Shown in pieces: positions 7,562 to 58,963 of a stretch of 64,000 nucleotides of DNA. Both the position numbers and the translations under genes were made by a program. A model generated the notes under the pieces. The model had not been told where the DNA came from. It did no database searches and saw nothing but the letters and a program-made list of their open reading frames with translations. How positions within the stretch are numbered: position 1 is the stretch's first letter; every line of letters begins with the position of its first letter. Origin of the DNA: Bacilli bacterium (lineage in GTDB: Bacteria; Bacillota_I; Bacilli_A; RF39; UBA660); the NCBI GenBank assembly GCA_017542465.1, contig JAFXXB010000032.1, positions 10,086 through 74,085 of the forward strand, read 5' to 3'.

Positions 7562-7999
7562 TTACACTGATTTCTTATTTTCTAAATATTCTTTTATTAT
7601 TCTTATCTTTTCTTTATCTTTGTCTCTATTATTAGTAATCATCCATTCAAGATTAATTTCTAACTTTTCTACGGGATAATCATCAACTATTTCTATATTA
7701 TCTTTATTAAAGTTCTTACAATTAACATCTATATTATCAGATAATTCATATACATAGTCATATCTATCTGATTGTCTCATGTGATATTTATCCATCAATT
7801 TATCAAATAGTTCTTTAGATACTCTAATATCAACATCATTACAAGAATCAGTTAAACCATGCATTAATAATGATCCACTTGCAATAATACAATATTCATG
7901 CTTATCTAATTTTAAATTATCAACAATTCTTAAGTATTCTTCTTTGTTCACATTACTTCCTACTTTACTATATTTTTCTTCTTTGTATTTTTTATCCAC
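7562..7999 (-). CDS. hypothetical protein, possible nucleotidyltransferase fold
   Basis: 145 aa. The ASGSLLMHGL...DVDI pattern (GS...D.D) suggests this fold. Its 5' end overlaps pnuC by 40 nt, so the true start is uncertain. Confidence 0.35.
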   Translation of the reverse strand: MDKKYKEEKYSKVGSNVNKEEYLRIVDNLKLDKHEYCIIASGSLLMHGLTDSCNDVDIRVSKELFDKLMDKYHMRQSDRYDYVYELSDNIDVNCKNFNKDNIEIVDDYPVEKLEINLEWMITNNRDKDKEKIRIIKEYLENKKSV

Positions 8000-8637
8000 A
8001 TATATAATCCATAGAAATTAATAACCATAAATCCAATAGATACAAGTAACATCATAATTGAATTAGGTGTTCCTTGAACAGTATTAATAATCCATATTAT
8101 TAGATCTATTGTATTATTAAATAACCATATCATCCAAGCTTCTCTATATCTAAAGTTCATTAATATAACAGCACATAAATTAATAATATTACTACTTGAA
8201 TCTAAAAAGGCTAGACGCTGTCCTGGTATTAAACTTAATAAATAACCAAATATAAATGATCCTACTATACATGAAATAATAATTATAACAGCCTTTTTAA
8301 AAGTAAATGCTTTAGCTTCAACTTCATCATCATTCATATGTTTCTTCCAACTAATATATCCCATTATTTGAGAAGGAAAATATACAAGTATAGATAATCC
8401 TGCTAATCCATATAATCCATTTACAAATGATACATAAGCAACAAATAGACAATATATTGCTCCAAATACATAGTTTATTATTCTTCCATTACTAGCATAA
8501 TATGAATTTAATAATCCTGTAGCTAATATAATTGTTCCTATAATATAATCATTTGATATAATTCCACATGTTATGGAAAAAATAACTATAACAATAGTAT
8601 ATATTACATCCTTAAGTTTCATTATTATCACATCCAT
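7960..8637 (-). CDS. pnuC: nicotinamide riboside transporter PnuC family
   Basis: 225 aa with about 7 TM helices and a PnuC-like layout (YFPSQIMGYISW, W..FNNTIDLIIW). Confidence 0.7.
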   Translation of the reverse strand: MDVIIMKLKDVIYTIVIVIFSITCGIISNDYIIGTIILATGLLNSYYASNGRIINYVFGAIYCLFVAYVSFVNGLYGLAGLSILVYFPSQIMGYISWKKHMNDDEVEAKAFTFKKAVIIIISCIVGSFIFGYLLSLIPGQRLAFLDSSSNIINLCAVILMNFRYREAWMIWLFNNTIDLIIWIINTVQGTPNSIMMLLVSIGFMVINFYGLYMWIKNTKKKNIVK

Positions 8638-8650
8638 TTTAATTATATCA

Positions 8651-8673
8651 AAAAAGAACCATTATTGGTTCTT
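8651..8673 (-). terminator. rho-independent terminator downstream of ssrA
   Basis: On the minus strand: AAGAACC-AAUAAU-GGUUCUU followed by UUUUU. Confidence 0.65.
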
Positions 8674-8684
8674 AAAAATCTCAA

Positions 8685-9045
8685 TGGTGGAGCCGAGGAG
8701 AGTTGAACTCCTGTCCAAACTACTCTTATATACAGCATCTACAGGTTTATTTAGATCAAAATTTCATAAACACTAGGAATCTAACAACCATATGTTTACT
8801 ATCCTAATAAGTATTCATTCATATTATCTAGGAAAATAATATAAATATATTCTATATATATGAACCTTTTAATAAACTATAGAAAATCTATTAATCGGTG
8901 CCTCATTGCCAATCTTAGGCAAAAGCTAAGGCAGTATTATAATTATTGTTGTCAGTTATATTTAACTGTGTTGGAAGATTAGGTCTTACCTTACCACCTG
9001 CAACCATATCAAGACTGTAATCTGTCGAAACCAGAAAACGGCCCC
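8685..9045 (-). ncRNA. ssrA: tmRNA (ssrA)
   Basis: On the minus strand the 5' end is GGGGCCGTTTTCTGGTTTCGACAG and the 3' end is GGACAGGAGTTCAACTCTCCTCGGCTCCACCA (tRNA-Ala-like T-arm, acceptor and CCA). An internal tag frame reads GAC AAC AAT AAT TAT AAT ACT GCC TTA GCT TTT GCC TAA (DNNNYNTALAFA*). Confidence 0.9.
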
Positions 9046-9095
9046 ATATAAATAGATGTGATATAAATATACCACATCTATACTATATATTCAAA

Positions 9096-9377
9096 TTAAT
9101 TATTAGAAACATCAATGATTAATTCACCATCTTTTGTATATAAGTATTTTTCTCTAGCATACTTAGCTACATATTCAGGATCTTGAAGTTTATTTACTTC
9201 ATCATTAAGTTCATCTTCTTTATTCATTAATTGATTATATTGTTGTTCTAATTCTATCTTTTTATTCTTATTAGAGATTATTGTTTTCCAACTATTAAAA
9301 CATGTAAACCCAACAAAGCCTACAATTAAACCTAATATCACGAAATAAATTGTCATTCTCAAATGATATCTCTTCAT
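9096..9377 (-). CDS. divIC: septum formation initiator family protein (FtsB/DivIC-like)
   Basis: 93 aa with an N-terminal TM helix and a coiled coil (ELEQQYNQLMNKEDELNDEVNKLQDPEYVAKYAREKY). Confidence 0.65.
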   Translation of the reverse strand: MKRYHLRMTIYFVILGLIVGFVGFTCFNSWKTIISNKNKKIELEQQYNQLMNKEDELNDEVNKLQDPEYVAKYAREKYLYTKDGELIIDVSNN

Positions 9378-9465
9378 AATAATCTCCTATACTAATTATA
9401 AACTAAAATGTAAATCGATATTGCATTTACACAGTAATTTATATCTAGTTTACGTGAGATTTTAC

Positions 9466-9492
9466 GCAAAATAAAAGAACCATTTAGGTTCT
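9466..9492 (-). terminator. rho-independent terminator after spoVG
   Basis: On the minus strand: AGAACC-UAAAU-GGUUCU followed by UUUAUUUU. Confidence 0.6.
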
Positions 9493-9493
9493 A

Positions 9494-9793
9494 TTATTCT
9501 TCATCATCTGTTTCTTCTTCTGTGTCAGCTTTAGCTAAAGCTTCTTCATAAACAGGATAAATTGCATCTTCAAAAATCTTTCTTGCATCAGCACTTATAG
9601 GATGAGCTATATCTCTATGTTCTCCTGGTGCAATTTGTTTAGAAGGCATAGCTAAGAATAAACCATTACTTCCTTCTAAGATTCTTATATCATGTACTAC
9701 AAACAAACCATCTATAGTAACAGTGACATAAGCTCTCATTTTTGAATTGTCGCGCTTAACGATATGAACATCTACATCTGTAATCTTCATCAT
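9494..9793 (-). CDS. spoVG: septation/regulatory protein SpoVG
   Basis: MKITDVDVHIV...FVVHDIRILEGSNGLFLAMPSK...HRDIAHPI is a near-canonical SpoVG sequence with an acidic tail. Confidence 0.9.
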   Translation of the reverse strand: MMKITDVDVHIVKRDNSKMRAYVTVTIDGLFVVHDIRILEGSNGLFLAMPSKQIAPGEHRDIAHPISADARKIFEDAIYPVYEEALAKADTEEETDDEE

Positions 9794-9854
9794 GTCACCT
9801 CTCCACTATTCTATTATCATTATATAACAAATATATGTTAAAAATCAATAAATA

Positions 9855-10634
9855 TTATTTTTGAGAAGCAACTATATCTACAAATACTTCATAAGGAATA
9901 TCTTCAGCTCTATTATTTAAATCGTAATTATATTTATTTAATATCTTATTAATATAATCTAAATCATAATTCTTTAAGTTATTTCTAATATTCTTTCTCT
10001 TAAATTGAAAAGCATCTCTTACTAGCTTTTTATATAACTTAACATCAATATCTTTCTTATCTTCCTTATTGGTAAAACTTAATATACATGAATCTACCTT
10101 AGGTTTAGGGTTAAACTTTTCTTTAGGAACGATAAATTCTTGTTTAATATCATAAAAATAATTCATTAATACAGTAATAGATCCATATTCTCTATTTCTT
10201 GGTTTAGCTATTAATCTATCACCAAATTCCTTTTGAACCATGAATACATTCTTATAAGAATCAATTTCATCATCTATTAATTTCATCATTATTGGTGTGG
10301 TTATATAGTATGGTAGGTTACCTACAACAAATAATCTATTATATTTAATATCTTTGATATCTTTCTTAATATCTCTTTTTAGGAAATCATCATATATAAT
10401 TTTAAACTTACTTGATGAATATCTAGATAAATACTCATCTAACTCTGTATCAATCTCATAAGCTAAATAATATGAATTTAATTGAGTTAGTTTAGATGTT
10501 AAAGCACCAGCACCTGGGCCTATTTCAATTATTAAATCATCTTCTTTAGCATCAATAAGTAAACTTATCTTATTAATAAGTGCCTTATCACTTATGAAGT
10601 TTTGACCATATTTTTTCTTAAAATTGAAGTTCAT
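9855..10634 (-). CDS. rsmA: 16S rRNA (adenine1518/1519-N6)-dimethyltransferase RsmA/KsgA
   Basis: KKYGQNF..D, EIGPGAGALT and GNLPYYITTPI motifs. Confidence 0.9.
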   Translation of the reverse strand: MNFNFKKKYGQNFISDKALINKISLLIDAKEDDLIIEIGPGAGALTSKLTQLNSYYLAYEIDTELDEYLSRYSSSKFKIIYDDFLKRDIKKDIKDIKYNRLFVVGNLPYYITTPIMMKLIDDEIDSYKNVFMVQKEFGDRLIAKPRNREYGSITVLMNYFYDIKQEFIVPKEKFNPKPKVDSCILSFTNKEDKKDIDVKLYKKLVRDAFQFKRKNIRNNLKNYDLDYINKILNKYNYDLNNRAEDIPYEVFVDIVASQK

Positions 10635-10682
10635 ATAACCACCTACTTAATTATATCAAATAAAAACAGGTAAATATACCTG

Positions 10683-11225
10683 TTATCTAGACCATCCAAA
10701 TCTTAATACATCATATGTAATTTTATGTCTTCCAACATGTTGAGATGCATAAGCTTCACTTGGTGATAATAAATCAATATCTGTTCCTAAAACACCTCTA
10801 TCTAAAACGATAGCTGTCATCTTAGTTCCATGATTATCCCAAGTAATAATTGATCCACATTTTAAGTTTTTAGATGATGCAACTATATTAACTGTTCCAT
10901 ATGTTGGATCGTTATAAGTTGTAGTACCATCTCTTACATCTTGACCAGTACATCCAAGTCTTCCTGAACATAAAGCACAGTCAGCACCATATCCAGTTAA
11001 GTCTCCAGTGAATCTATCTAGTGGATACCAAGCATCTGTATAATGTATTTCATCATATTTTGTAGCCATAGCAGTTAAGTCTAATGTCTTATTCATTGAA
11101 TCATTAGTTATCTTACCATTAACAGTATAAGTATTAACCTTTGTCATACAAAATACTAAAGCAAGTAATAATAAAATCTTAGTTGCTTTAAATATGTTGT
11201 TAAATACTCTTTTCATTATCCTCAC
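10683..11225 (-). CDS. secreted 3D-domain protein (cell-wall-associated, YabE/Rpf-like C-terminus)
   Basis: 180 aa with a signal or TM segment. The C-terminal ...IVASS..LKCGS......AIVLDRG..G.DIDLL pattern is typical of 3D domains. Confidence 0.55.
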   Translation of the reverse strand: MRIMKRVFNNIFKATKILLLLALVFCMTKVNTYTVNGKITNDSMNKTLDLTAMATKYDEIHYTDAWYPLDRFTGDLTGYGADCALCSGRLGCTGQDVRDGTTTYNDPTYGTVNIVASSKNLKCGSIITWDNHGTKMTAIVLDRGVLGTDIDLLSPSEAYASQHVGRHKITYDVLRFGWSR

Positions 11226-11251
11226 CTTAAATTGATTATATCATAAAGGTG

Positions 11252-12001
11252 TCAAATAGAAAATATTTTTGTTGCATTTTGAGAAGTTTTTTGTTCTACT
11301 TCTTCAATACTTACTCCTTTTAAATTAGCTAAGAATTTAGCAACCTCATAAACATGCGAAGAATCGTTACTTTCACCTCTATAAGGTTCTGGAGTAAGAA
11401 ATGGAGAATCTGTTTCTAATAATAAATTTTCTAGTGGAACATCTTTAATTACATCCTTTAAATTAGCATTTTTGAATGTAATTACTCCTCCAATTCCTAA
11501 ATAATAACCCTTTTTAGTGTAAATCTCTGCAGTTTCTTTTGACCCAGAGAAACAATGAATATCAACAGTTAATTTATACTTATCTAATATATCTATTGTA
11601 TCCTTTGTTGCTTCTCTTGAATGAACTACTACAGGTTTATTATATTGTTCAGCTATTTTTAATTGTTCTTCAAATAATTCTTTTTGTTTTTCTTTATTAT
11701 CTTTAGTCCAATAATAATCTAATCCTATCTCTCCAATACCTACAAATTTAGGATTATCTTTATTATCTTCTATTATTTGTTTTAATTCATCTATACTATC
11801 ATCTACATTTTCAGGATGAATACCCAAACAAAAATAATAATTATCATAATCCTTAGCATGTTCTATTACTTCATAACAAGTCTTAATATTATCTGCAGCT
11901 ACAATAACCTTATCTATACCTTTAGATTTAGCTTTATCTAATATTCCTTGTATATCATCATAATATTCGTTAAATAAATGTGCATGTGTATCTACTAACA
12001 T
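11252..12001 (-). CDS. tatD: TatD-family metal-dependent hydrolase (YabD-like)
   Basis: MLVDTHAHL..., GEIGLDY, HSR and ETDSPFL motifs. The track ORF extends 23 codons further upstream over the tRNA-like element. The ATG at 12001 has an aggagg RBS. Confidence 0.85.
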   Translation of the reverse strand: MLVDTHAHLFNEYYDDIQGILDKAKSKGIDKVIVAADNIKTCYEVIEHAKDYDNYYFCLGIHPENVDDSIDELKQIIEDNKDNPKFVGIGEIGLDYYWTKDNKEKQKELFEEQLKIAEQYNKPVVVHSREATKDTIDILDKYKLTVDIHCFSGSKETAEIYTKKGYYLGIGGVITFKNANLKDVIKDVPLENLLLETDSPFLTPEPYRGESNDSSHVYEVAKFLANLKGVSIEEVEQKTSQNATKIFSI

Positions 12002-12043
12002 ATTATACCTCCTAATAAAAAAAACTATCAATATGATAGGTAC

Positions 12044-12114
12044 TGTGGTAGGCAGGATTTCAACCTGCATCTCTTTGAATTATCAAAGTGTTTTCACTCT
12101 TAAACTACTTCCCC
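12044..12114 (-). tRNA. non-canonical tRNA-like element (pseudo-tRNA; identity undeterminable)
   Basis: The minus strand folds as a cloverleaf. It has a D-arm GTTT/AAAC and a T-arm GCAGG-TTGAAAT-CCTGC. The acceptor GGGGAAG/CTACCAC has 2 mismatches. The 'anticodon' arm CTTTG-ATAATT-CAAAG has a 6-nt loop. No CCA is encoded. Confidence 0.4.
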
Positions 12115-12162
12115 ACAAAAAGAATTCTATCATATATTATTTTTTATATCAAATTAGTTATT

Positions 12163-15100
12163 CTATATCATATTTATTATCTCATCTAATAACTTAACTT
12201 CATAATAAATAAAGTGTTTATCTAAGTTAATTGTAGGTAAAGATATATATATTCTCTTATTTTGATATTTTAATCTAAATTTAGGATTAATATTATATGT
12301 AATTAAGAATAACTTCTCACCATCTACTTTATCTGATATTTCTTGTGGTATTTCAATAGTGATTTCATTTTCTCTTCTATCTACTCTAGTTATAAGTAGT
12401 TTATTAGCTAGTTTTTCAAACCACTCTTCATACATATATACTTCCATATCAGAATTAATCTTACCAAATCTATCTTCTATTTGCTCTCTAATACTATTTA
12501 ATGTATCTTCATCTTTAATTTCATTTATCATCTTATGTATCTCAATCTTAACTGATTCATCAGATACATATTCATCAGATATATGGTTAGATACTTCAAT
12601 TAATGGATTACTTTGTTCATCTTCAGCATCTATTTCTTCACCATTTAGTTTCTTTATTTCTTCATTTACCATTTGAGTATATAATTCAATACCTACTGAA
12701 TCTATAAATCCTGCTTGTTCAGAACCTAATATATCTCCAGCACCTCTTATTGATAAATCTCTCATAGCTATCTTATAACCAGATCCTAATTCAGTAAAAT
12801 CTTTAATAGATTGTAATCTCTTAATAGCTGTATCAGTTAATACTTTAGCTGGTTTATACATAAGATATGCATAGGCTATCTTATCAGCACGACCAACTCT
12901 ACCTCTTAACTGATATAATTGAGCTAACCCAAATTGGTCAGCATCTATTACTATTAATGTATTAACATTAGGTATATCTATACCTGTTTCAATTATAGTT
13001 GTACAAATAAGAACATTAAACTTATTATCTACAAAGTCAGTTACGACGTTTTCAAGTTCTTGTTTATCCATCTTACCATGAGCTATAGCAATACTAGCTT
13101 CAGGTATTAATAATTGAATTCTAGTTTTAAAGTCTTCTATATCTTGTACTCTATTGTATAGAATAAATACTTGTCCTTCTCTAGATAATTCTTTATACAC
13201 TGCATCTTTAATTAATACATCGTTTTCTTCCAACACATATGTTTGAACAGGATATCTATTAACAGGTGCAGTATCTATAATAGATAAATCTCTTAAACCA
13301 GACATAGCCATCTTTAATGTTCTTGGTATTGGAGTTGCAGATAAAGTTAATACATTAACATCATTCTTTATCTCTTTTATTTCTTCTTTTTGAGCTACTC
13401 CAAATCTTTGTTCCTCATCTATAATTAATAAACCTAGATTCTTATATTCTAACTTTTTATTGAATAATTTATGAGTACCAAATAAGATATCTATTTTACC
13501 TTCAGATAAATCTTTAATAATTCTATTTTGTTCTTTAGTAGAAGTAAATCTATTTATTAAAGCTATATTAATAGGAAAATCTTTAAATCTTTGTATTGCA
13601 TTGTTGTATTGTTGTCTTGATAATAATGTAGTTGGACAAAGATATGCTACTTGATATCCATTCATAACAGCTTTGAATATTCCACGGAAAGCTACTTCAG
13701 TCTTACCAAATCCTACATCACCACATAATAATCTATCCATTGGAATAGGTGATTTTAAATCATTATCAACTTCTTTAATACTTTTTAACTGATCTGATGT
13801 TTCATCATATTCAAAATAATCACCAAATATTACTTCATCTTCAAAAGTCTTAAATACTGGACCTTTCAAATTAGCTCTTGCTGCATATAGTTTAATTAAT
13901 TCTTCTGATATATCGTGTATTCTAGTTCTAACTCTTAGTTTAGTCTTAGCCCATGATGTAGAATTAAGTTTATTAATATGTGGTGCTACTCCATCAGCAT
14001 CTGAATATTTATAGATAGTACTAATCTTTTCTACAGGAAGATATATTTTATCATTACCTTGATAATTTATTAAGATATAATCTCTTACCATATCTCCTTT
14101 AGTTAAACATGTAATACCACCATAAATACCTATACCATGTTGAGTATGTACTACATAATCACCTACTTTAATATCATTAAAGTCTTGTATCTTTTTACCC
14201 ATCTTATAAGTATTCTTATAATTTGTATAAACTCTTTCATCATCTATATCATATTCACTTATATAAATATAATTATTAATAATAAATCCATCATTAATCT
14301 TCTTTTTAATTACATTTATTTTTCCTGGTTGAATAGATCCTACATTAACATCTTTAATATATTCTTGTATTCTTTCTATTTGTTTATCTTTAGATAAACA
14401 TATAACTAATTCATTATTTTTATAATTATCTAAACAATAATCTTTTAGTTTTTCATAGTCACCTTTAAACTTAAGTACTGGTTTACTATTATAATTATCT
14501 GAATATTCTAGATTATTAATAGTTTCTACCTTTATGTATTTATTTACTTCTATTTCATCAAATAAATACATATATTTATATTCATTATCAATATGTTTAG
14601 ATTCTTTAAAAGCTTTAATATCATCACATATTTTATTATAACCATTTAATATTTGATTATAATCAACATAGAATACATTAGGATTATCTAAATAATCATA
14701 TAAACTATTATGTTCATCACTTATTACTTCTTGGAATGGTTTAATAGTATATTCATTTAATTCATTTAAACTTAACTGAGTAGATTCATCAAATACTCTT
14801 ATACTATCTATTTCATCACCAAAGAATTCTATTCTAATCGGATGTTCTTCTTCTATAGGAAATATATCTACTATATATCCTCTTACAGCATATTCACCTG
14901 TCGCTGTAACTATTGAATCTTGTTTATATCCTAGAGTTAATAATCTATCAATTATTTCATCACGATTAATTTCTAAACCTTTTTTTAACTCTATAATTGT
15001 ATTATCTTGTTCTTTAATAGATGGTAAATATCTTAAATATCCCATCAAGTTAGTTACTATAATAGATTTCTTATTCTTTTTTATTCCATCAAGAGTATCT

Positions 15101-52865: not shown

Positions 52866-52890
52866 AAAAGAGACTTTATAGTCTCTTATT
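52866..52890. terminator. bidirectional terminator between recG and the paralog array
   Basis: aagagact-ttat-agtctctt flanked by A- and T-runs. Confidence 0.7.
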
Positions 52891-53661
52891 TTATTTAGTT
52901 TTTTTCTTACTGAAATCTGCACTAATTATGTACTTTCTTTTCCAAGAAGATGGATGTAGTATAGTATCAAAAGTATCATCAGTGAAATCTCTACCAGGAT
53001 AATATCTTGATTTAGATAGTTTATAACCAAGATCCTTTATAGAGCTAGCAAAATCAATAATATCTACAGTAATAATATTTTTATCAATATTAATTTCTTT
53101 TGGAAAATAATGTATGCTTTCTAGTTCGTCCGTGTCATATTCCTTATTAATATCTCTTCTTGTTTCATATATCCCATCTACTAATATAGAAGATGTATAT
53201 AATGTAGCATTTGTATATTCAATTGGTAAATAATTAAATATTAATTGTCCGTTCCAAAGTAATCTGGATAGTTAATTAGTAAATTCATCATCCAATTTTT
53301 TTTGTATTGTATAATTACAGTTATTTGTTTTTAAGTATTTATAGTTTAATATCAGTTCATCTAAATGAGCCACTTCACAGTAGAATTTAGGTTTAAAGTA
53401 TAATTCGATTTCGTCGAAAACATAATTTAAATCTCCTGACTTATCCACTATATCTTTCATAGTGCTCTCAAATTCTTTAACCCCTTCTTCAGTGTTAACG
53501 GAATTAACAATCTCTTTTTTGGTGATTGGTTTTCCTTCGATTTTAAATAATTTGGTTATGTCTTCTTCATCCTTATCGTAATTAATACTTACTAACACAT
53601 ATTTTTTTTCATGAGTTTTAATTAATTCATCTCTATATTTTTTTAATTCTTCAATATTCAT
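52891..53661 (-). pseudogene. array paralog 3, full-length frame interrupted by one in-frame TAA (53272-53274)
   Basis: The track ORF 53272..53661 (129 aa) continues in the same frame for 126 more codons without a stop. It ends ...SADFSKKKTK*, matching the ADFRNLKKTKK tails of paralogs 1 and 2. The total length of 256 codons equals that of the intact copies. Confidence 0.7.
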
Positions 53662-53683
53662 AAAAATCCCCCTTTTTTTAATA

Positions 53684-54454
53684 TTAATTATTCTTTTTAG
53701 TTTTCTTAAGATTTCTGAAATCTGCTAGAGCTATTCTTCTACCACAAGTATAATCATATGAATTAATAATTGAATGAATAAAGTTTTCATCATTATCCAT
53801 ATCAGGATTTATACTAATTCGTGAATAATAACCTCGGCTTTCTATAATTCTATTAAATTCTTCAATATTTACAATAATGTTCTTACTTTCTGTTTTTATA
53901 TTAGTACATTCTTTCCATTCACAATAATCTTCTTCGTTATATTCTTGAGTTATGGTATTTATATCTCTTTCAATTTCATTGTTATCATCATCTAATATTT
54001 CATATGCAACTACATCTGCATCATTAAAATTAATAGGTACATTACTAATAATTATGTTACCGTTTTTTATTAATGATCTTAAAAAATAATACATAGCTTT
54101 CTCATTTATTATTTTATTTGCTAGTTTATAAAACATATCAAATAAATCTCTGGCATAAGATATATTACAGTAGAATTTATAATTTGAATATAAATAAATT
54201 AAATCAAAATCATAACTACGCTCTACAGATTTATCCACTATATCAGCCATAACTCTTTCGAACTCTTTAACCCCTTCTTCAGTATTAGTGTTATTCATTA
54301 TTTCTTCTCTGGTCATTGGTTTACCTTCTATTTTAATAAATTCATCCCAATCTATATCTTCGTCTTCAGTAAAATCAATATTTATACAGATATATTTATT
54401 ATCTTTATTTCTTAATAATTTATTTCTATATTGTTTTAATTCTTCAACATTCAT
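53684..54454 (-). CDS. array paralog 2 (256 aa), unknown function
   Basis: MNVEELKQYRNKLL...NTNTEEGVKEFE...FYC N-domain shared with the neighbours. AGGGGGA RBS. Confidence 0.65.
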   Translation of the reverse strand: MNVEELKQYRNKLLRNKDNKYICINIDFTEDEDIDWDEFIKIEGKPMTREEIMNNTNTEEGVKEFERVMADIVDKSVERSYDFDLIYLYSNYKFYCNISYARDLFDMFYKLANKIINEKAMYYFLRSLIKNGNIIISNVPINFNDADVVAYEILDDDNNEIERDINTITQEYNEEDYCEWKECTNIKTESKNIIVNIEEFNRIIESRGYYSRISINPDMDNDENFIHSIINSYDYTCGRRIALADFRNLKKTKKNN

Positions 54455-54468
54455 AATAATCCCCCTAA

Positions 54469-55212
54469 TTATCTCTTTTTTGTTTTCTTAAGATTTCTAA
54501 GATCGGCAGTAAATGTTCGTCTTGTTACGTCTTCTCCCTCTTCCAGAATAGCCTCTTTAATTTGACAAATTATATCTACTTCTTGCCAATCCCAGTCAAT
54601 TGTTTTATATCCTAAGTCAGCAATTGCTTTATTATAATCTTCTAAATTAACTATTATTTCTTTACTTTTTAAAAACATTTCCTTGAATTCTTCCCAGTTT
54701 TCATCGCCATAATCATCTATGTTATATTGTTTAGTAATATCAGTATCATCAATATCATTATAGTATGATATTAATCTTGCATAATTAAACATAATTGGAA
54801 CATAATTGGTAATTATATCTCCGTTCTCTATACATTCATCCAGTAAATATGGTAATTCACGTACAGCTCGTTTATATCCTTCTTTATACAATAAGTCATG
54901 TAACTCAATTATTTTGTTTACTTTGCTTACTTCACAATAAAACTTTATATTTGAATATAAATAAATTTTTTTATAATCGTAATTAAATATTTTACTTTGA
55001 TTTATTACATCTACCATTGTTTTTTCGAATTCCCTAATACCTTCTTCGGTATTAGTGTTATTCATTATTTCAGTCTTAGTAAGTGGTTTACCATCAGTTT
55101 TGATGTAGTGTTTATGCTTTTTTAAATCATATCCTACTTTAACACAAATATATTGTTTTTCATGATTTTTTAATAACTCATTTCTATATTGTTTTAATTC
55201 TTCAATATTCAT
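54469..55212 (-). CDS. array paralog 1 (247 aa), unknown function
   Basis: MNIEELKQYRNELL...NTNTEEGIREFE...FYC N-domain. AGGGGGA RBS. Confidence 0.65.
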   Translation of the reverse strand: MNIEELKQYRNELLKNHEKQYICVKVGYDLKKHKHYIKTDGKPLTKTEIMNNTNTEEGIREFEKTMVDVINQSKIFNYDYKKIYLYSNIKFYCEVSKVNKIIELHDLLYKEGYKRAVRELPYLLDECIENGDIITNYVPIMFNYARLISYYNDIDDTDITKQYNIDDYGDENWEEFKEMFLKSKEIIVNLEDYNKAIADLGYKTIDWDWQEVDIICQIKEAILEEGEDVTRRTFTADLRNLKKTKKR

Positions 55213-55226
55213 AAAAATCCCCCTAA

Positions 55227-56225
55227 TTATTTCTTTTTCTTTTTATCTTCTTCATTTGGTTGAAATTTTCTTGATGTAATTACTTTATATTTTATGTTAA
55301 TTGTTTTTTTGTATAATGCTTCAAATAATCTTCTTTTAAATCTAATTAAGAATTGTTGATCATCTATTGGTATATTAGTAAATTTCAATTTATATTCATG
55401 TTCCATTATTTCTTGTTTGTTTTCTTTGTTTTCTTTTCTTATATCGTTTAATTCTTTATGATATTTAAATATTTCATATAACTCTTCATCAGAAAGATCA
55501 GCATAATCATCTAAATAACTATAATCAACGTTTCCATTTCCATCACGATGTATTTCTTCTTCATCAAATAAGAAGTCATCGTCATCATCATCCATACAAT
55601 CTACACCTAATAGTTTAGTTGCATACATACATAAGTCACGACCATCATAGTTACTATAATCTTTATCTGCTTCCATATCTTCAAATATCTTATGCACTAA
55701 CATCCATAGTTCATAAGAGTTTCCAATTAGATCCCCCTCATATTTATCCCAATCTTTAATATAAGAATCTATTTGTTTTTTTATAAAATCTATAAGATAT
55801 ATTCTTCCACTTACGTAATCAGCAAGATATTTGTCATAGACAGCAATTATATTACATATATATTGATTTATATCTACGTCTTTTAAATCTTCTTTATTCT
55901 CATAATCAATATGTAATTTGTCTTCTAGGTTAATTCTATATTTATCATTAAATATACTTATAACCATTTGCTTTGCAATAAAGTCTGTTATGATGCTGTC
56001 TTGTTTAAACTCATATTTTGCTAATGCGAAACCTAACCCCATATCTTTTTTGATTTCATCACTTTCTTGATTAAGTATTAATTGATAATCCATCATCTTT
56101 TTAAGATATAAATATTCTGCTCTAAGATAATCATTCTTTTCTCCAGTAGAAACATATTTTAATATAGTGTTTCTAAGTAGTACTTCATTTTTACTTGAAA
56201 TACATAAGTTGTCAAAATCAATCAT
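55227..56225 (-). CDS. hypothetical protein (332 aa) with a poly-Asp patch and a Lys-rich tail
   Basis: Long ORF 14 nt upstream of paralog 1. No family recognised. Confidence 0.55.
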   Translation of the reverse strand: MIDFDNLCISSKNEVLLRNTILKYVSTGEKNDYLRAEYLYLKKMMDYQLILNQESDEIKKDMGLGFALAKYEFKQDSIITDFIAKQMVISIFNDKYRINLEDKLHIDYENKEDLKDVDINQYICNIIAVYDKYLADYVSGRIYLIDFIKKQIDSYIKDWDKYEGDLIGNSYELWMLVHKIFEDMEADKDYSNYDGRDLCMYATKLLGVDCMDDDDDDFLFDEEEIHRDGNGNVDYSYLDDYADLSDEELYEIFKYHKELNDIRKENKENKQEIMEHEYKLKFTNIPIDDQQFLIRFKRRLFEALYKKTINIKYKVITSRKFQPNEEDKKKKK

Positions 56226-56427
56226 TTCATTTCATTCTTTCTAATTTGTATCAACGAATTGCCTTGTACTATAATCGAACTATTACTTATAGCTCCCCTT
56301 GATACATCTTTATATATTAGTAAATATATTTGTTGGCATCAGTATTTTTATTTATTTTTCCTTTCTTTAAATACTGCCCCTGTACAAAGGCAACAGATAA
56401 GAATATCACTTTAAATATATTTTGTCA

Positions 56428-56456
56428 AATTAAAAAACAAGGATTATTTCCTTGTT
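56428..56456 (-). terminator. rho-independent terminator of the 535-aa ORF
   Basis: On the minus strand: AACAAGGA-AAUAA-UCCUUGUU followed by UUUUAAUUU, overlapping the stop codon. Confidence 0.7.
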
Positions 56457-58042
56457 TTAATATCTGGTGTTTTTTCATCAGTTAATACTGAATCATAAGT
56501 TAATATATATCCAGCTATATCTAATCCATGTTCTTTTAAGAATTGTTTATATTCTTCACTCTTAGGATAATATATCTCTTTTTCTACTGCATCACTTACA
56601 ACTTCTTGGCTGATATTTAGTGATTTTAGGTGTTCTTTTTTATTATATACTTTGATATTATTTGTTGGAGTACTATGTGATTTCCAATCATATAATTTAC
56701 TCGGAGATATAGTCGTTAATGATCTAATAAATCCCTTACTATTATGTTCATTTAAATCATTCTCATCTCTTAATAAAACTAAATTATATCTTCTATTTGG
56801 TGATAGTAATCCATTCTTATCTTCTGTTACTATAAAACTATAATTAGGTTCAGGATCATTATTTCCTGCAAGTCTGTCTTTTTCTCGTCTAACTGATACT
56901 TCATAACCGGTTTCCATATTATATAATTCTTTAGTTGTTTCAAATGTATCTAAATATAAGAATGGTTTTACTTTAGTAAATAGTTTGGCTAAAACAACCG
57001 TATCTTCAGTTGTTAGTGTTTTATCTCCTATTGAATAATGTATATTATTTTCATGTGTATGGTAGAATAGTGAGTCCTCAATTCCAGTCGATATATTTGA
57101 AATATTTTTAATTGTAGTTATTGAATTTCTTTCTTGATTATCTAGTAAGTCAGCATAAATTGTTTTGTATAATCTATTACTTTTAATTGTTTTGTAATCT
57201 ATTCCTAATAAATGACATAACATATCTTCATCAAATTGAATATCAATGAATTTATTATTGTAATTTCCAATTAATACTTTATCATAATAAGAATTATAGT
57301 ATTTAAAGATTGCTTCTCTTACCATATCATATATTACTTGTACATCATCACTAGTGAATTCTAGATCATTATCTTTAATATAATCTTTTAAATTATATGT
57401 ATTATTATTTTCAGTTATTGTTTGACTTATTCCATTTTGACTATATGCACCAGCTAATATGCAATATTTATCATATTTATCTCTTTTAAAGAAATGAATT
57501 TTATCATATTTATATAATGAATTCTTTATATAATTTGTGATTATATTCATTTTATCTTGTGAATCTGAATCACCTATTTGGCTATTATTTATTGTAGTGA
57601 TTAATTCAGGGATTTGTATTTCATCATATAAATATTTAATAATATCATTAGTTCTTGAATCCAGATTATTTACGTTTGTAATACTTGTATCGTTAGGATT
57701 TTGTTTATATGTATTCATAGCTATTGATAATAATAAACTATCAATGTTTACTCCTAATCTCTGTTCTATTTCATCAGATATACTGTCTAAAAATAGATAC
57801 TTCTTTCTTTCAATTTCTTTAATTTTTTCTTTACTATCTATATACTGTTGAATTACTTTTTCATATTTTCTTCTATCATATTCTTTTTCAGGTGTTACAT
57901 ATAGCTCTGGGAATACTGTATAGAAGTCTCTCGTTTCTTGAGTCTCTTCTTTAATAATATCATTTATACCTTGTTGTCTGATTTTATGTGCAGCATCATT
58001 TTTTTTGATTTTGTTAATATCACCAGCAAAAACTACAGCCAT
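56444..58042 (-). CDS. hypothetical protein (about 532 aa), no recognisable domain
   Basis: Long ORF. The likely start is the ATG at 58042 (MAVVFAGD), 5 nt after a gaggtgg RBS and downstream of a TGTTATAAT extended -10. Confidence 0.6.
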   Translation of the reverse strand: MAVVFAGDINKIKKNDAAHKIRQQGINDIIKEETQETRDFYTVFPELYVTPEKEYDRRKYEKVIQQYIDSKEKIKEIERKKYLFLDSISDEIEQRLGVNIDSLLLSIAMNTYKQNPNDTSITNVNNLDSRTNDIIKYLYDEIQIPELITTINNSQIGDSDSQDKMNIITNYIKNSLYKYDKIHFFKRDKYDKYCILAGAYSQNGISQTITENNNTYNLKDYIKDNDLEFTSDDVQVIYDMVREAIFKYYNSYYDKVLIGNYNNKFIDIQFDEDMLCHLLGIDYKTIKSNRLYKTIYADLLDNQERNSITTIKNISNISTGIEDSLFYHTHENNIHYSIGDKTLTTEDTVVLAKLFTKVKPFLYLDTFETTKELYNMETGYEVSVRREKDRLAGNNDPEPNYSFIVTEDKNGLLSPNRRYNLVLLRDENDLNEHNSKGFIRSLTTISPSKLYDWKSHSTPTNNIKVYNKKEHLKSLNISQEVVSDAVEKEIYYPKSEEYKQFLKEHGLDIAGYILTYDSVLTDEKTPDIKTRK

Positions 58043-58120
58043 ACATACCACCTCTATTATAATAATTATAACATGATATTTATTTGTATTTATTTATATA
58101 ATTATTTGTTTACATTTATA

Positions 58121-58150
58121 AATAAAAAAAGGGACTCCCATAAGGGAGTC
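58121..58150 (-). terminator. orphan minus-strand rho-independent terminator upstream of the 535-aa ORF promoter
   Basis: On the minus strand: GACUCCC-UUAU-GGGAGUC then CCUUUUUUUAUUU. No U-run follows on the plus strand. Confidence 0.6.
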
Positions 58151-58261
58151 ATTCAGAGGAACAATCATAACTAGTTTTCTTGCTTTACTATTAGTGTAAA
58201 TTAATAAAAAACTCTACTCACGACTTTAAACTAAATGTTATAATTATACTAGGAGGCTGTT

Positions 58262-58747
58262 ATGGAAAAAAGACCAATAAATGGATATAGTGTAAACAAT
58301 GAACTAATTTCTGGATCAGAATTTTATGGAGAGATTGGAACATTACTTGGTGTAATTGAAAAAGATGAAAAACTTTATGCCATTATTGAAGATAAAAATG
58401 GTAGATTATTTTCTAAAAATGTTGTTATTGAGACAAATGTAGTAATGACTAAAAATGGACCTGCTGTTACTGAAACAGTATATGCCGGCGAAAAAAATAT
58501 TCCTATACCAGAAAGTACGGAAGACTATATAAGAGATGGAATAGCAAAATATAACAATTTAGATTTCTTATATGAAGGAGAGGTAAATATTGATTTGGCT
58601 TTAGCTCAAAATGATTCCTTTTTTGTAGGTGAAGATAATTTTATAGATTATTTAAGTGATTTAAAGAAAAGAAATCCTGCAACTCCATTATTAGATAGTT
58701 TAAAAGAATATCCATATGAACAAGAACAACATTTCAATCGTATATAA
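58262..58747 (+). CDS. hypothetical protein (161 aa)
   Basis: aggagg RBS and a TGTTATAAT extended -10 upstream. No family recognised. Confidence 0.55.
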   Translation: MEKRPINGYSVNNELISGSEFYGEIGTLLGVIEKDEKLYAIIEDKNGRLFSKNVVIETNVVMTKNGPAVTETVYAGEKNIPIPESTEDYIRDGIAKYNNLDFLYEGEVNIDLALAQNDSFFVGEDNFIDYLSDLKKRNPATPLLDSLKEYPYEQEQHFNRI

Positions 58748-58766
58748 TTAATTATTAAAATATTAT

Positions 58767-58796
58767 AAGGGCTTAGGCTCTTTTTTGTTTTTTATC
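58767..58796 (+). terminator. rho-independent terminator
   Basis: aagggc-ttag-gctctt followed by ttttgtttttt. Confidence 0.55.
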
Positions 58797-58797
58797 A

Positions 58798-58898
58798 TAA
58801 AAAAAGTGGAGCCTTTCGGCTCCTTCAGGGGGTTTTGGTTGATATACTCTAACATTGGTTAAATCGTTAGAGTCTACCGGCTATGTTTACCATAGCCT
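58798..58898 (-). ncRNA. candidate small RNA 'B' (about 100 nt) with a C-rich single-stranded stretch
   Basis: Minus-strand promoter TTGATT, 17 nt, TAATAT. Hairpins GGCUAUG/CAUAGCC and ACUCUAAC/GUUAGAGU. An unpaired CAACCAAAACCCCCUGAA stretch. Terminator GGAGCC-GAAA-GGCUCC followed by UUUUUUU. Confidence 0.55.
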
Positions 58899-58963
58899 AT
58901 TATAATATTACTAAATATGTTTTATAAAATCAATTATATTTTTATAAATAATAAAAGAGTAGG

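Follow-up and report, generated by a model that had tools for sequence, protein, structure and literature searches.

A divergent PBECR4-like, predicted RNase gene and its neighbours in a species-specific insertion beside recG of an uncultured gut Bacilli genome

Do the genes that separate recG from a major facilitator superfamily (MFS) transporter gene in an uncultured gut or rumen Bacilli genome form an undescribed system, for which the original prediction, made from the DNA letters alone, had named most of them as the strongest candidate? The window analysed here is a stretch of 64,000 nucleotides (G000:C1:10086-74085) from a metagenome-assembled genome (MAG) of 1.09 Mb, which consists of 46 contigs, is 87% complete and has a G+C content of ~25%. 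The distance between recG and the MFS gene is 6.1 kb in the window (52866-58963) versus 46 bp in the congener G010, while one unrelated gene lies between them in G007, and the 6.1-kb block is a species-specific insertion. On its minus strand the order from 5' to 3' is an open reading frame (ORF) for a 532-amino-acid protein, a weak hairpin with a T-run, a 218-nt spacer, an ORF for a 332-amino-acid protein, a 14-nt gap, three paralogs and a terminator. We found that the 532-amino-acid protein contains a PBECR4-like core with His277 and Ser441, that its family is recurrently linked to the helical family of the 332-amino-acid protein, and that the paralogs form an acidic array with one decayed copy.

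PBECR4 (Pfam PF18813; phage Barnase-EndoU-ColicinE5/D-RelE-like (BECR) nuclease 4) is a predicted metal-independent endoRNase with the BECR fold, for which RNase activity is a prediction only, the founding family included (Iyer et al. 2017, PMC5512222). PBECR domains are domains of phages or conjugative elements and are defined by an active-site His and a C-terminal Thr/Ser (PMC5512222). As a reference set we aligned 12-13 domains that scored above the Pfam PBECR4 threshold in genomes of the same class. Comparison with hhalign of the family core of the 532-amino-acid protein with 12 Pfam-verified PBECR4 domains gave a probability of 95.2% (E 2.7e-8) over 45 columns (residues 241-285), and a second profile-profile comparison gave 87.3%. 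The two subfamilies described below reached 90% (short alone) and 72% (long alone), and the control alignments with the 332 family, the paralogs and the neighbour families fam7 and fam8 stayed at or below 0.3%. With a hidden Markov model (HMM) of 12 true PBECR4 domains, the 532-amino-acid protein ranked first among the 403 ORFs of all fetched loci (24.3 bits, E 6.5e-7, residues 245-323) and the top matches, 13 of 13, were all members of its family. With Pfam PBECR4 itself the best family member reaches 15.7 bits (E 0.019), at the same core.

The core spans residues ~230-450 (56693-57355, minus strand) and carries the F-x-H-L-x-G core of PBECR4 with the active-site His. This His277 (codon 57214-57212, in FIDIQFDEDMLCHLLGI) is kept in 17 of 17 relatives and aligns with H42, the sole invariant residue of the PBECR4 alignment; Gly280, which lies with it in L-x-H-L-L-G-I, and Phe355 and Tyr401 are likewise invariant in the family. 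A Thr or Ser stands at the position of Ser441 (codon 56722-56720) in 17 of 17 relatives and is co-linear with P-x-[ST]-[LF] of PBECR4, the C-terminal halves alone aligning with a probability of 1%. The centre of the 532-amino-acid protein is, as judged from sequence, related to the PBECR4 domain, though highly diverged from it, and is a predicted RNase. We call it PBECR4-like and not a PBECR4 member, because the Pfam model misses the protein, which remains below the gathering threshold of 27 bits, because the C-terminal half is non-significant and because there is no reliable structure.

The likeness to PBECR4 includes an N-terminal helix, a strand and the core motif with its invariant His, further co-linear motifs such as the conserved Ser/Thr near the domain end, and the occurrence of both as solo genes in Bacilli genomes. 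In contrast to PBECR4 domains of ~190 amino acids, the domain of the 532-amino-acid family comprises ~220 amino acids with inserts, and in the window protein it sits between a helical N-terminal extension of ~225 amino acids and a tail of ~80 amino acids. The family also differs in being restricted to one family of small-genome gut Bacilli and in having no phage, polyvalent-protein or conjugative context.

A word-seeded search of 5.8 billion proteins returned only the self-match for both the 532- and the 332-amino-acid ORF, and a full phmmer search of 1.84 billion representatives gave one distant relative of the former (P0005, E 1.9e-6, residues 210-419), whose genomic context was not found in genome, viral or metagenome contigs. 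A two-sequence profile then led to 21 of 400 sister genomes, and a 17-sequence profile (alignment A5) to 32 of 250 genomes of the same bacterial family (~13%); the 532-amino-acid protein itself had no match in 11 congeners and 25 further genera. Members of the long subfamily (400-635 amino acids) have the N-terminal extension and occupy variable, non-syntenic places. Those of the short subfamily (277-314 amino acids) adjoin cysS/truB or hisS-aspS in 5 of 8 loci, which are spread over several genera (L063-L065, L069 and L070, from G707, G556, G136, G357 and G462), and this conserved, translation-related neighbourhood hints at a cellular role in RNA processing. A DUF3800-I RNA (RF02969, over threshold) was noticed at L061 14361-14485, ~5.5 kb from a long-subfamily gene in G683.

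The 332-amino-acid protein (55227-56225, minus strand) belongs, on its alignment to relatives, to a lineage-restricted helical family. A six-frame search of sister genomes gave relatives in 9 of 150 genera, and the family profile found members in 24 of 250 genomes of the same bacterial family and in 0 of 350 from other families of the class; against the protein collection it returned only two members, both already known. The family core (alignment A1) reads GxGF...F.AK...IF...LH..F...YGINN...YD..LA.Y...W..Y. Modelling with AlphaFold2 and the A1 alignment gave an all-helical core at residues 11-165 with a predicted local distance difference test (pLDDT) score >85, for which Foldseek found no similar fold in PDB or BFVD. 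Most members have an additional N-terminal segment of ~100 amino acids that is DUF4116-like, with one member matching DUF4116 (PF13475) at E 1.5e-4. By contrast, no DUF4116 repeat is present in the window protein, which matches positions 97-360 of the family model only, and the helical core GxGF...AK...H...YD..LA.Y...W matches no Pfam family. After this core (residues 11-185) the protein continues with an acidic insert and a basic tail.

Members of the two families lie on the same strand within 5 kb of each other in two other genera, 2.6 kb apart in G597 and 3.7 kb apart in G027. The order in these clusters is a PBECR4-like gene, a divergent LysR gene, a gene of ~200 amino acids, a gene for a ~320-amino-acid protein ending in sigma-70 region 4, and the 332-family gene; the sites are L062 (G597:C3) 7853-12835 and L028 (G027:C4) 7977-14136, together with L056 (G758:C14) 7752-10829. 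The G597 cluster also lies just downstream of recG and is followed by a gene for a 685-amino-acid protein and a Fic/DOC gene. As the chance that two random genes lie within 5 kb in a 1.1-Mb genome is ~1%, linkage in three genera is unlikely to be accidental. As the clusters of G597 and G027 are orthologous, they amount to a single event. The co-occurrence that had been proposed as a check was thus seen side by side in G597 and G027 for the 532- and 332-amino-acid families, but not for the paralog family, and at the level of whole genomes it was that of chance.

These relatives change how the block had first been described. Its observations were largely right, since the ORFs and listed signals are present, but calling the genes orphans without a nuclease motif was wrong in view of the F-x-H-L-x-G core. 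Likewise, the statement that the block has no recognisable homology does not hold, as the 532- and 332-amino-acid proteins both have relatives in the same bacterial family. What stands of the candidate undescribed system is an unannotated, species-specific accessory unit; its genes are not orphans, and a nuclease-type domain is present. Known housekeeping homologs, which had been named as an argument against such a system, were found for neither family.

The surroundings of recG were compared across related genomes. The region downstream of recG holds different genes in every congener examined (L038-L044) and is a hot spot of gene-content variation. The MAGs that contain the RecG relatives bear the labels Bacilli, Tenericutes or Erysipelotrichales and were obtained from ruminants, rabbits, chickens (Candidatus Onthousia) and humans. 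Members of the 532-amino-acid, 332-amino-acid or paralog families were absent from all 80 related recG loci, each taken with flanks of up to 8 kb, and the recG-adjacent spot was rejected on this count as a common home of these families. Fic, Bro-N and helix-turn-helix (HTH) genes are near the locus. No integrase or phage structural genes were found in or beside the block, a search for flanking att-like repeats gave none, and tblastn against phage and plasmid collections produced no match. Similarly, Pfam, PHROGs, PADLOC and NCBIfam gave nothing above threshold for the block proteins, and neither did sequence searches of the PDB.

Downstream of the 332-amino-acid gene lie three tandem acidic paralogs (52891-55212, minus strand) of 247 amino acids, 256 amino acids and 256 codons, the last with one TAA, and they share 38-44% identity with one another over their full length. 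A search of 150 genomes from the same family gave no significant relatives; a 182-amino-acid protein within the G027 cluster is co-linear with the paralogs, with a non-significant probability of 6.4% that has no evidential value. The neighbours of the RNase-like gene are acidic (isoelectric points 4.6-5.3). Tandem immunity-gene arrays of Firmicutes, for example esaG/DUF600, resemble this arrangement of divergent copies in tandem, with one copy decayed, next to a gene of nuclease type. They differ in that there is no sequence relationship and no type VII secretion system (T7SS) here, and in that the 332-amino-acid gene separates the RNase-like gene from the array. Two independent short assemblies (Logan contigs L011 and L012) end within ~30 nt past the 332-amino-acid gene, at the start of the array, which would fit variation between strains or a collapse of repeats within the array.

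Directly upstream of the promoter of the 532-amino-acid gene is a candidate structured RNA of ~110 nt (58121-58240, minus strand), with a long imperfect hairpin followed by a terminator hairpin (58150-58133) and a U-run. Its fold energy is -29.9 kcal/mol (z = -4.66), a value that none of 200 shuffles reached. The terminator hairpin is the strongest terminator of the region, and there is no upstream gene on the same strand that would need one. A search of Rfam, including drum, with 58040-58300 gave no match at E<=10, no direct or tandem repeats were found within 58121-58240, and no convincing promoter for the RNA was found. The hairpin overlaps the promoter region of a divergent 161-amino-acid gene, and other long-subfamily genes have no comparable RNA in this place, just terminators that belong to the preceding genes.

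Weinberg et al. 2017 (PMC5737381) describe drum as an RNA that is closed by a terminator and associated with a protein encoded nearby. We found drum RNAs (RF02958, over the gathering score) directly upstream and on the same strand in 3 of 13 true PBECR4 loci of the same class, at L074 2029-2134, L076 2119-2228 and L078 2083-2193 (all minus strand), and the last of these has two 6A RNA matches further upstream. The window shares with drum/PBECR4 cassettes and with type III toxin-antitoxin systems (ToxIN, CptIN) the order of structured RNA, Rho-independent terminator and PBECR4-type gene on one strand. Unlike in those systems, the window RNA is a single long hairpin with no drum match, no repeats and no evident promoter, and the protein is three times larger.

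What, then, could the block do? The explanation that we prefer, tentatively and at somewhat less than an even chance, is an intracellular conflict module of the RNase toxin or defence type, which is a prediction only. In such a module the 532-amino-acid protein would be a cytoplasmic endoRNase effector, of a toxin-antidote pair or of an abortive-infection-like defence, and one or more of its neighbours would hold it in check: the 332-amino-acid helical protein, the acidic paralogs or the upstream structured RNA. The acidic paralogs might inhibit it by mimicking nucleic acid, in the manner of barstar or the colicin immunity proteins. Upon a trigger, for instance infection by a phage, the RNase would be freed and would cut cellular or invader RNA, and the N-terminal helical extension and the C-terminal motif of the protein could serve regulation or localisation. 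In favour of this reading are the RNase-like domain, the insertion, the linkage of the two families and several features of the locus: the paralog array with its pseudogene, the acidic neighbours, the Fic, Bro-N and HTH genes nearby and the metagenome contigs that break just past the 332-amino-acid gene. Toxin-immunity and defence systems typically employ BECR RNases as their effectors (PMC5512222; bioRxiv 10.64898/2026.08.28.747851). BECR-fold toxin-immunity pairs (colicin D/E5, CdiA-CT, BECR-Tox2/Imm2; bioRxiv 10.64898/2026.08.28.747851) belong to the same predicted fold class, and the small acidic proteins encoded downstream on the same strand are candidate inhibitors here as well. However, the window locus has no delivery domain or secretion system, its RNase-like domain is not C-terminal, and the neighbouring genes do not resemble any known immunity family.

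Several results weigh against a conflict module. The confident alignment to PBECR4 is confined to the N-terminal 45 columns, the C-terminal half being co-linear but not significant, and Pfam's own PBECR4 model gave no match in the 532-amino-acid protein at E<=1 or in the whole genome at E<=10. The single-sequence AlphaFold2 model of this protein had a pLDDT of 32, so that its order of strand, strand, helix with His277 and later strands, which is compatible with BECR, carries no weight. Among the component models of PADLOC-DB 2.0 no family was found at E<=1 for any of the 7 block proteins. In the 250 sister genomes the families mostly occur apart: the RNase-like family is present in 32 genomes and the helical one in 24, and 4 contain both, against 3.1 expected, so there is no association at the genome level. 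G758 has the RNase-like gene and the two middle genes of the cluster but no helical-family gene, and the paralog family was not found beside any relative. Lastly, the housekeeping surroundings of the short subfamily (cysS, truB, hisS-aspS) argue that PBECR4-like proteins need not be toxins.

Because of those surroundings, an ordinary cellular enzyme stays a serious rival, even if an unlikely one. The 532-amino-acid family would then be a lineage-specific RNase of RNA processing or regulation, the window copy an accessory paralog, and the neighbours unrelated genes in a variable spot. Such a role is consistent with the position of the short subfamily in 5 of 8 loci, with a bona fide PBECR4 gene between ffh and rpsP, with the mostly separate occurrence of the two families and with codon and G+C composition that match the host, but the window copy and the long subfamily occur in variable, non-syntenic places and are absent from 11 of 11 congeners, the physical linkage with the helical family recurs in three genera, and a neighbouring array in which one copy decays is what conflict loci typically show. 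The stop codon in the third paralog could also be read differently, as a sign that the block was brought in as cargo by a mobile element or prophage, is now decaying and no longer serves the host, which we judge rather improbable. For decay speak the N-terminal family domain that the 332-amino-acid protein lacks, the Fic, Bro-N and HTH genes in the vicinity, the gene content past recG, which changes from one congener to the next, and the fact that PBECR are phage or conjugative-element domains (PMC5512222). Against decay, neither large ORF is broken, the predicted catalytic residues are kept, and 6-9 independent metagenome contigs carry both ORFs with 100% identity; the block is accompanied by no integrase, flanking repeats or phage structural genes, and the phage and plasmid collections gave no match.

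There are two further alternatives. The upstream RNA (58240-58121) might neutralise the predicted RNase as in type III systems, with the 332-amino-acid protein and the paralogs being separate. The folding of this RNA (z = -4.66), its strong terminator with no same-strand gene upstream that needs it, and the terminator-ended, protein-associated drum RNAs (PMC5737381) directly upstream in 3 of 13 true PBECR4 loci argue for such a pair; yet the missing drum match at E<=10, tandem repeats and convincing promoter, the lack of a comparable RNA at other long-subfamily genes or of a homologous locus for a covariation test, and the overlap with the promoter region of the 161-amino-acid gene make it a quite improbable account. 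A secreted polymorphic toxin (LXG/T7SS-like) with an array of cognate and orphan immunity genes would fit the layout, in which the large protein combines a helical N-terminal region and a nuclease-like domain, and small acidic paralogs come after it on the same strand. Readings based on secretion are unlikely because there is no LXG or WXG100 in the 87%-complete genome (best E 0.054 for PF04740, elsewhere in the genome; no match for PF06013) and no signal peptide in the 532-amino-acid protein; as the RNase-like domain is central and not C-terminal, and the genome is ~1.1 Mb, we give this one hardly any probability.

As to the conflict module that we prefer, a more elaborate form of it is a long shot. 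The 532-amino-acid RNase would be checked both by the upstream RNA, in a type III-like way, and by exchangeable acidic inhibitors, with the 332-amino-acid protein as sensor or adaptor, and the whole would be an anti-phage or addiction system of reduced-genome gut Bacilli. If true, this would be the first time that a protein-immunity array attached to a BECR RNase that is not secreted is given a functional context. The kind of predicted RNase is a known one, of which the block offers a new and very divergent variant in a little-studied lineage. PBECR4 is hereby extended to a very divergent, enlarged and chromosomal subfamily in uncultured gut/rumen Bacilli with genomes of ~1 Mb, a lineage with few recognisable defence or toxin systems, and this subfamily is now linked to a second uncharacterised family. 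Among the effectors of bacterial conflict systems BECR RNases have a major place, and the block has become testable, as catalytic residues (His277, Ser441) and candidate inhibitors can be named. The relatives had been missed by word-seeded searches and Pfam thresholds, and were recovered by a profile bootstrapped from sister genomes.

The signals described earlier for the two large genes were all recovered. The minus-strand ORF of the 532-amino-acid protein (56444-58051) opens at GTG, and its likely start is the ATG at 58042, 5 nt past AGAGGTGG, which gives a gene at 56444-58042 for 532 amino acids, with a helical N-terminal extension (residues 1-~225), the PBECR4-like core and the C-terminal tail. 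The predicted extended -10 promoter element (TGTTATAAT, 58073-58065) and ribosome-binding site (AGAGGTGG, 58055-58048) are both in place, as read from the sequence, and long-subfamily relatives have similar TGnTAnAAT elements upstream of their genes. The terminator announced at the end of the gene is there as a hairpin with a T-run (56458-56434, minus strand) that overlaps the stop codon, but it is weak, because only 3 of its 10 pairs are G-C. The protein is soluble, with no signal peptide. It is Asn/Tyr/Lys-rich, as had been stated, but this is simply the composition of a 25% G+C genome: its composition and its G+C content at third codon positions (0.12) are nearly the same as those of RecG, and the codon usage and G+C content of the block are host-like. 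The identical protein and locus were found on 9 metagenome contigs.

The 332-amino-acid ORF abuts the first paralog as described, stopping 14 nt short of it, and its DDDDDD patch and Lys-rich C-terminus (tail KKKKK) are also present. In the 218-nt spacer between the two large ORFs, the reported promoter-like TTGACA-17-TATTCT was confirmed at 56428-56400, with TG before the -10, and is followed by a leader of ~170 nt (promoter and leader, 56226-56428, minus strand). Folding of the leader gave z = -3.30, with none of 200 shuffles doing equally well, and it has no match in Rfam; a 12-bp long-range closing stem, UUGCCUUUGUAC...GUACAAGGCAA, is predicted for it (56226-56395, minus strand). That the spacer could be a remnant of the N-terminal domain of the 332 family, or of the LysR, fam7 or fam8 genes that stand between the two families elsewhere, was rejected, as no signal was seen.

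The block further contains the divergent 161-amino-acid acidic ORF (58262-58747, plus strand), for which no relatives were found. The terminator after the paralog array is common to the block and the convergent recG. Terminator-like sites are enriched in the region (7 versus 0.7 in shuffles), whereas promoter-like matches are not (37 seen versus 53 expected from shuffles).

The C-terminal motif of the 532-amino-acid protein (EIYYPKSEEYKQFLKEHGLDI, ~21-35 amino acids; 56516-56578, minus strand) recurs in two large acidic proteins with a membrane anchor that this genome also encodes. A motif of ~37 amino acids, WDPRLT.EQI..A.SR.IYEP.G.EYE.FLREHGLD, occurs twice in an acidic protein of 1178 codons beside smc (G000:C22:33950-37486, L003) and once in a second large acidic protein (G000:C36, L002 472-2913), and is partial at the C-terminus of the 532-amino-acid protein (window 56516-56620). 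Both large proteins have one hydrophobic segment past the motif and no Pfam identity. The second is split by an in-frame TAA into 428 amino acids and 384 codons. An alternative genetic code was rejected, the in-frame stop of another gene being TAA and the ORFs of the window being intact.

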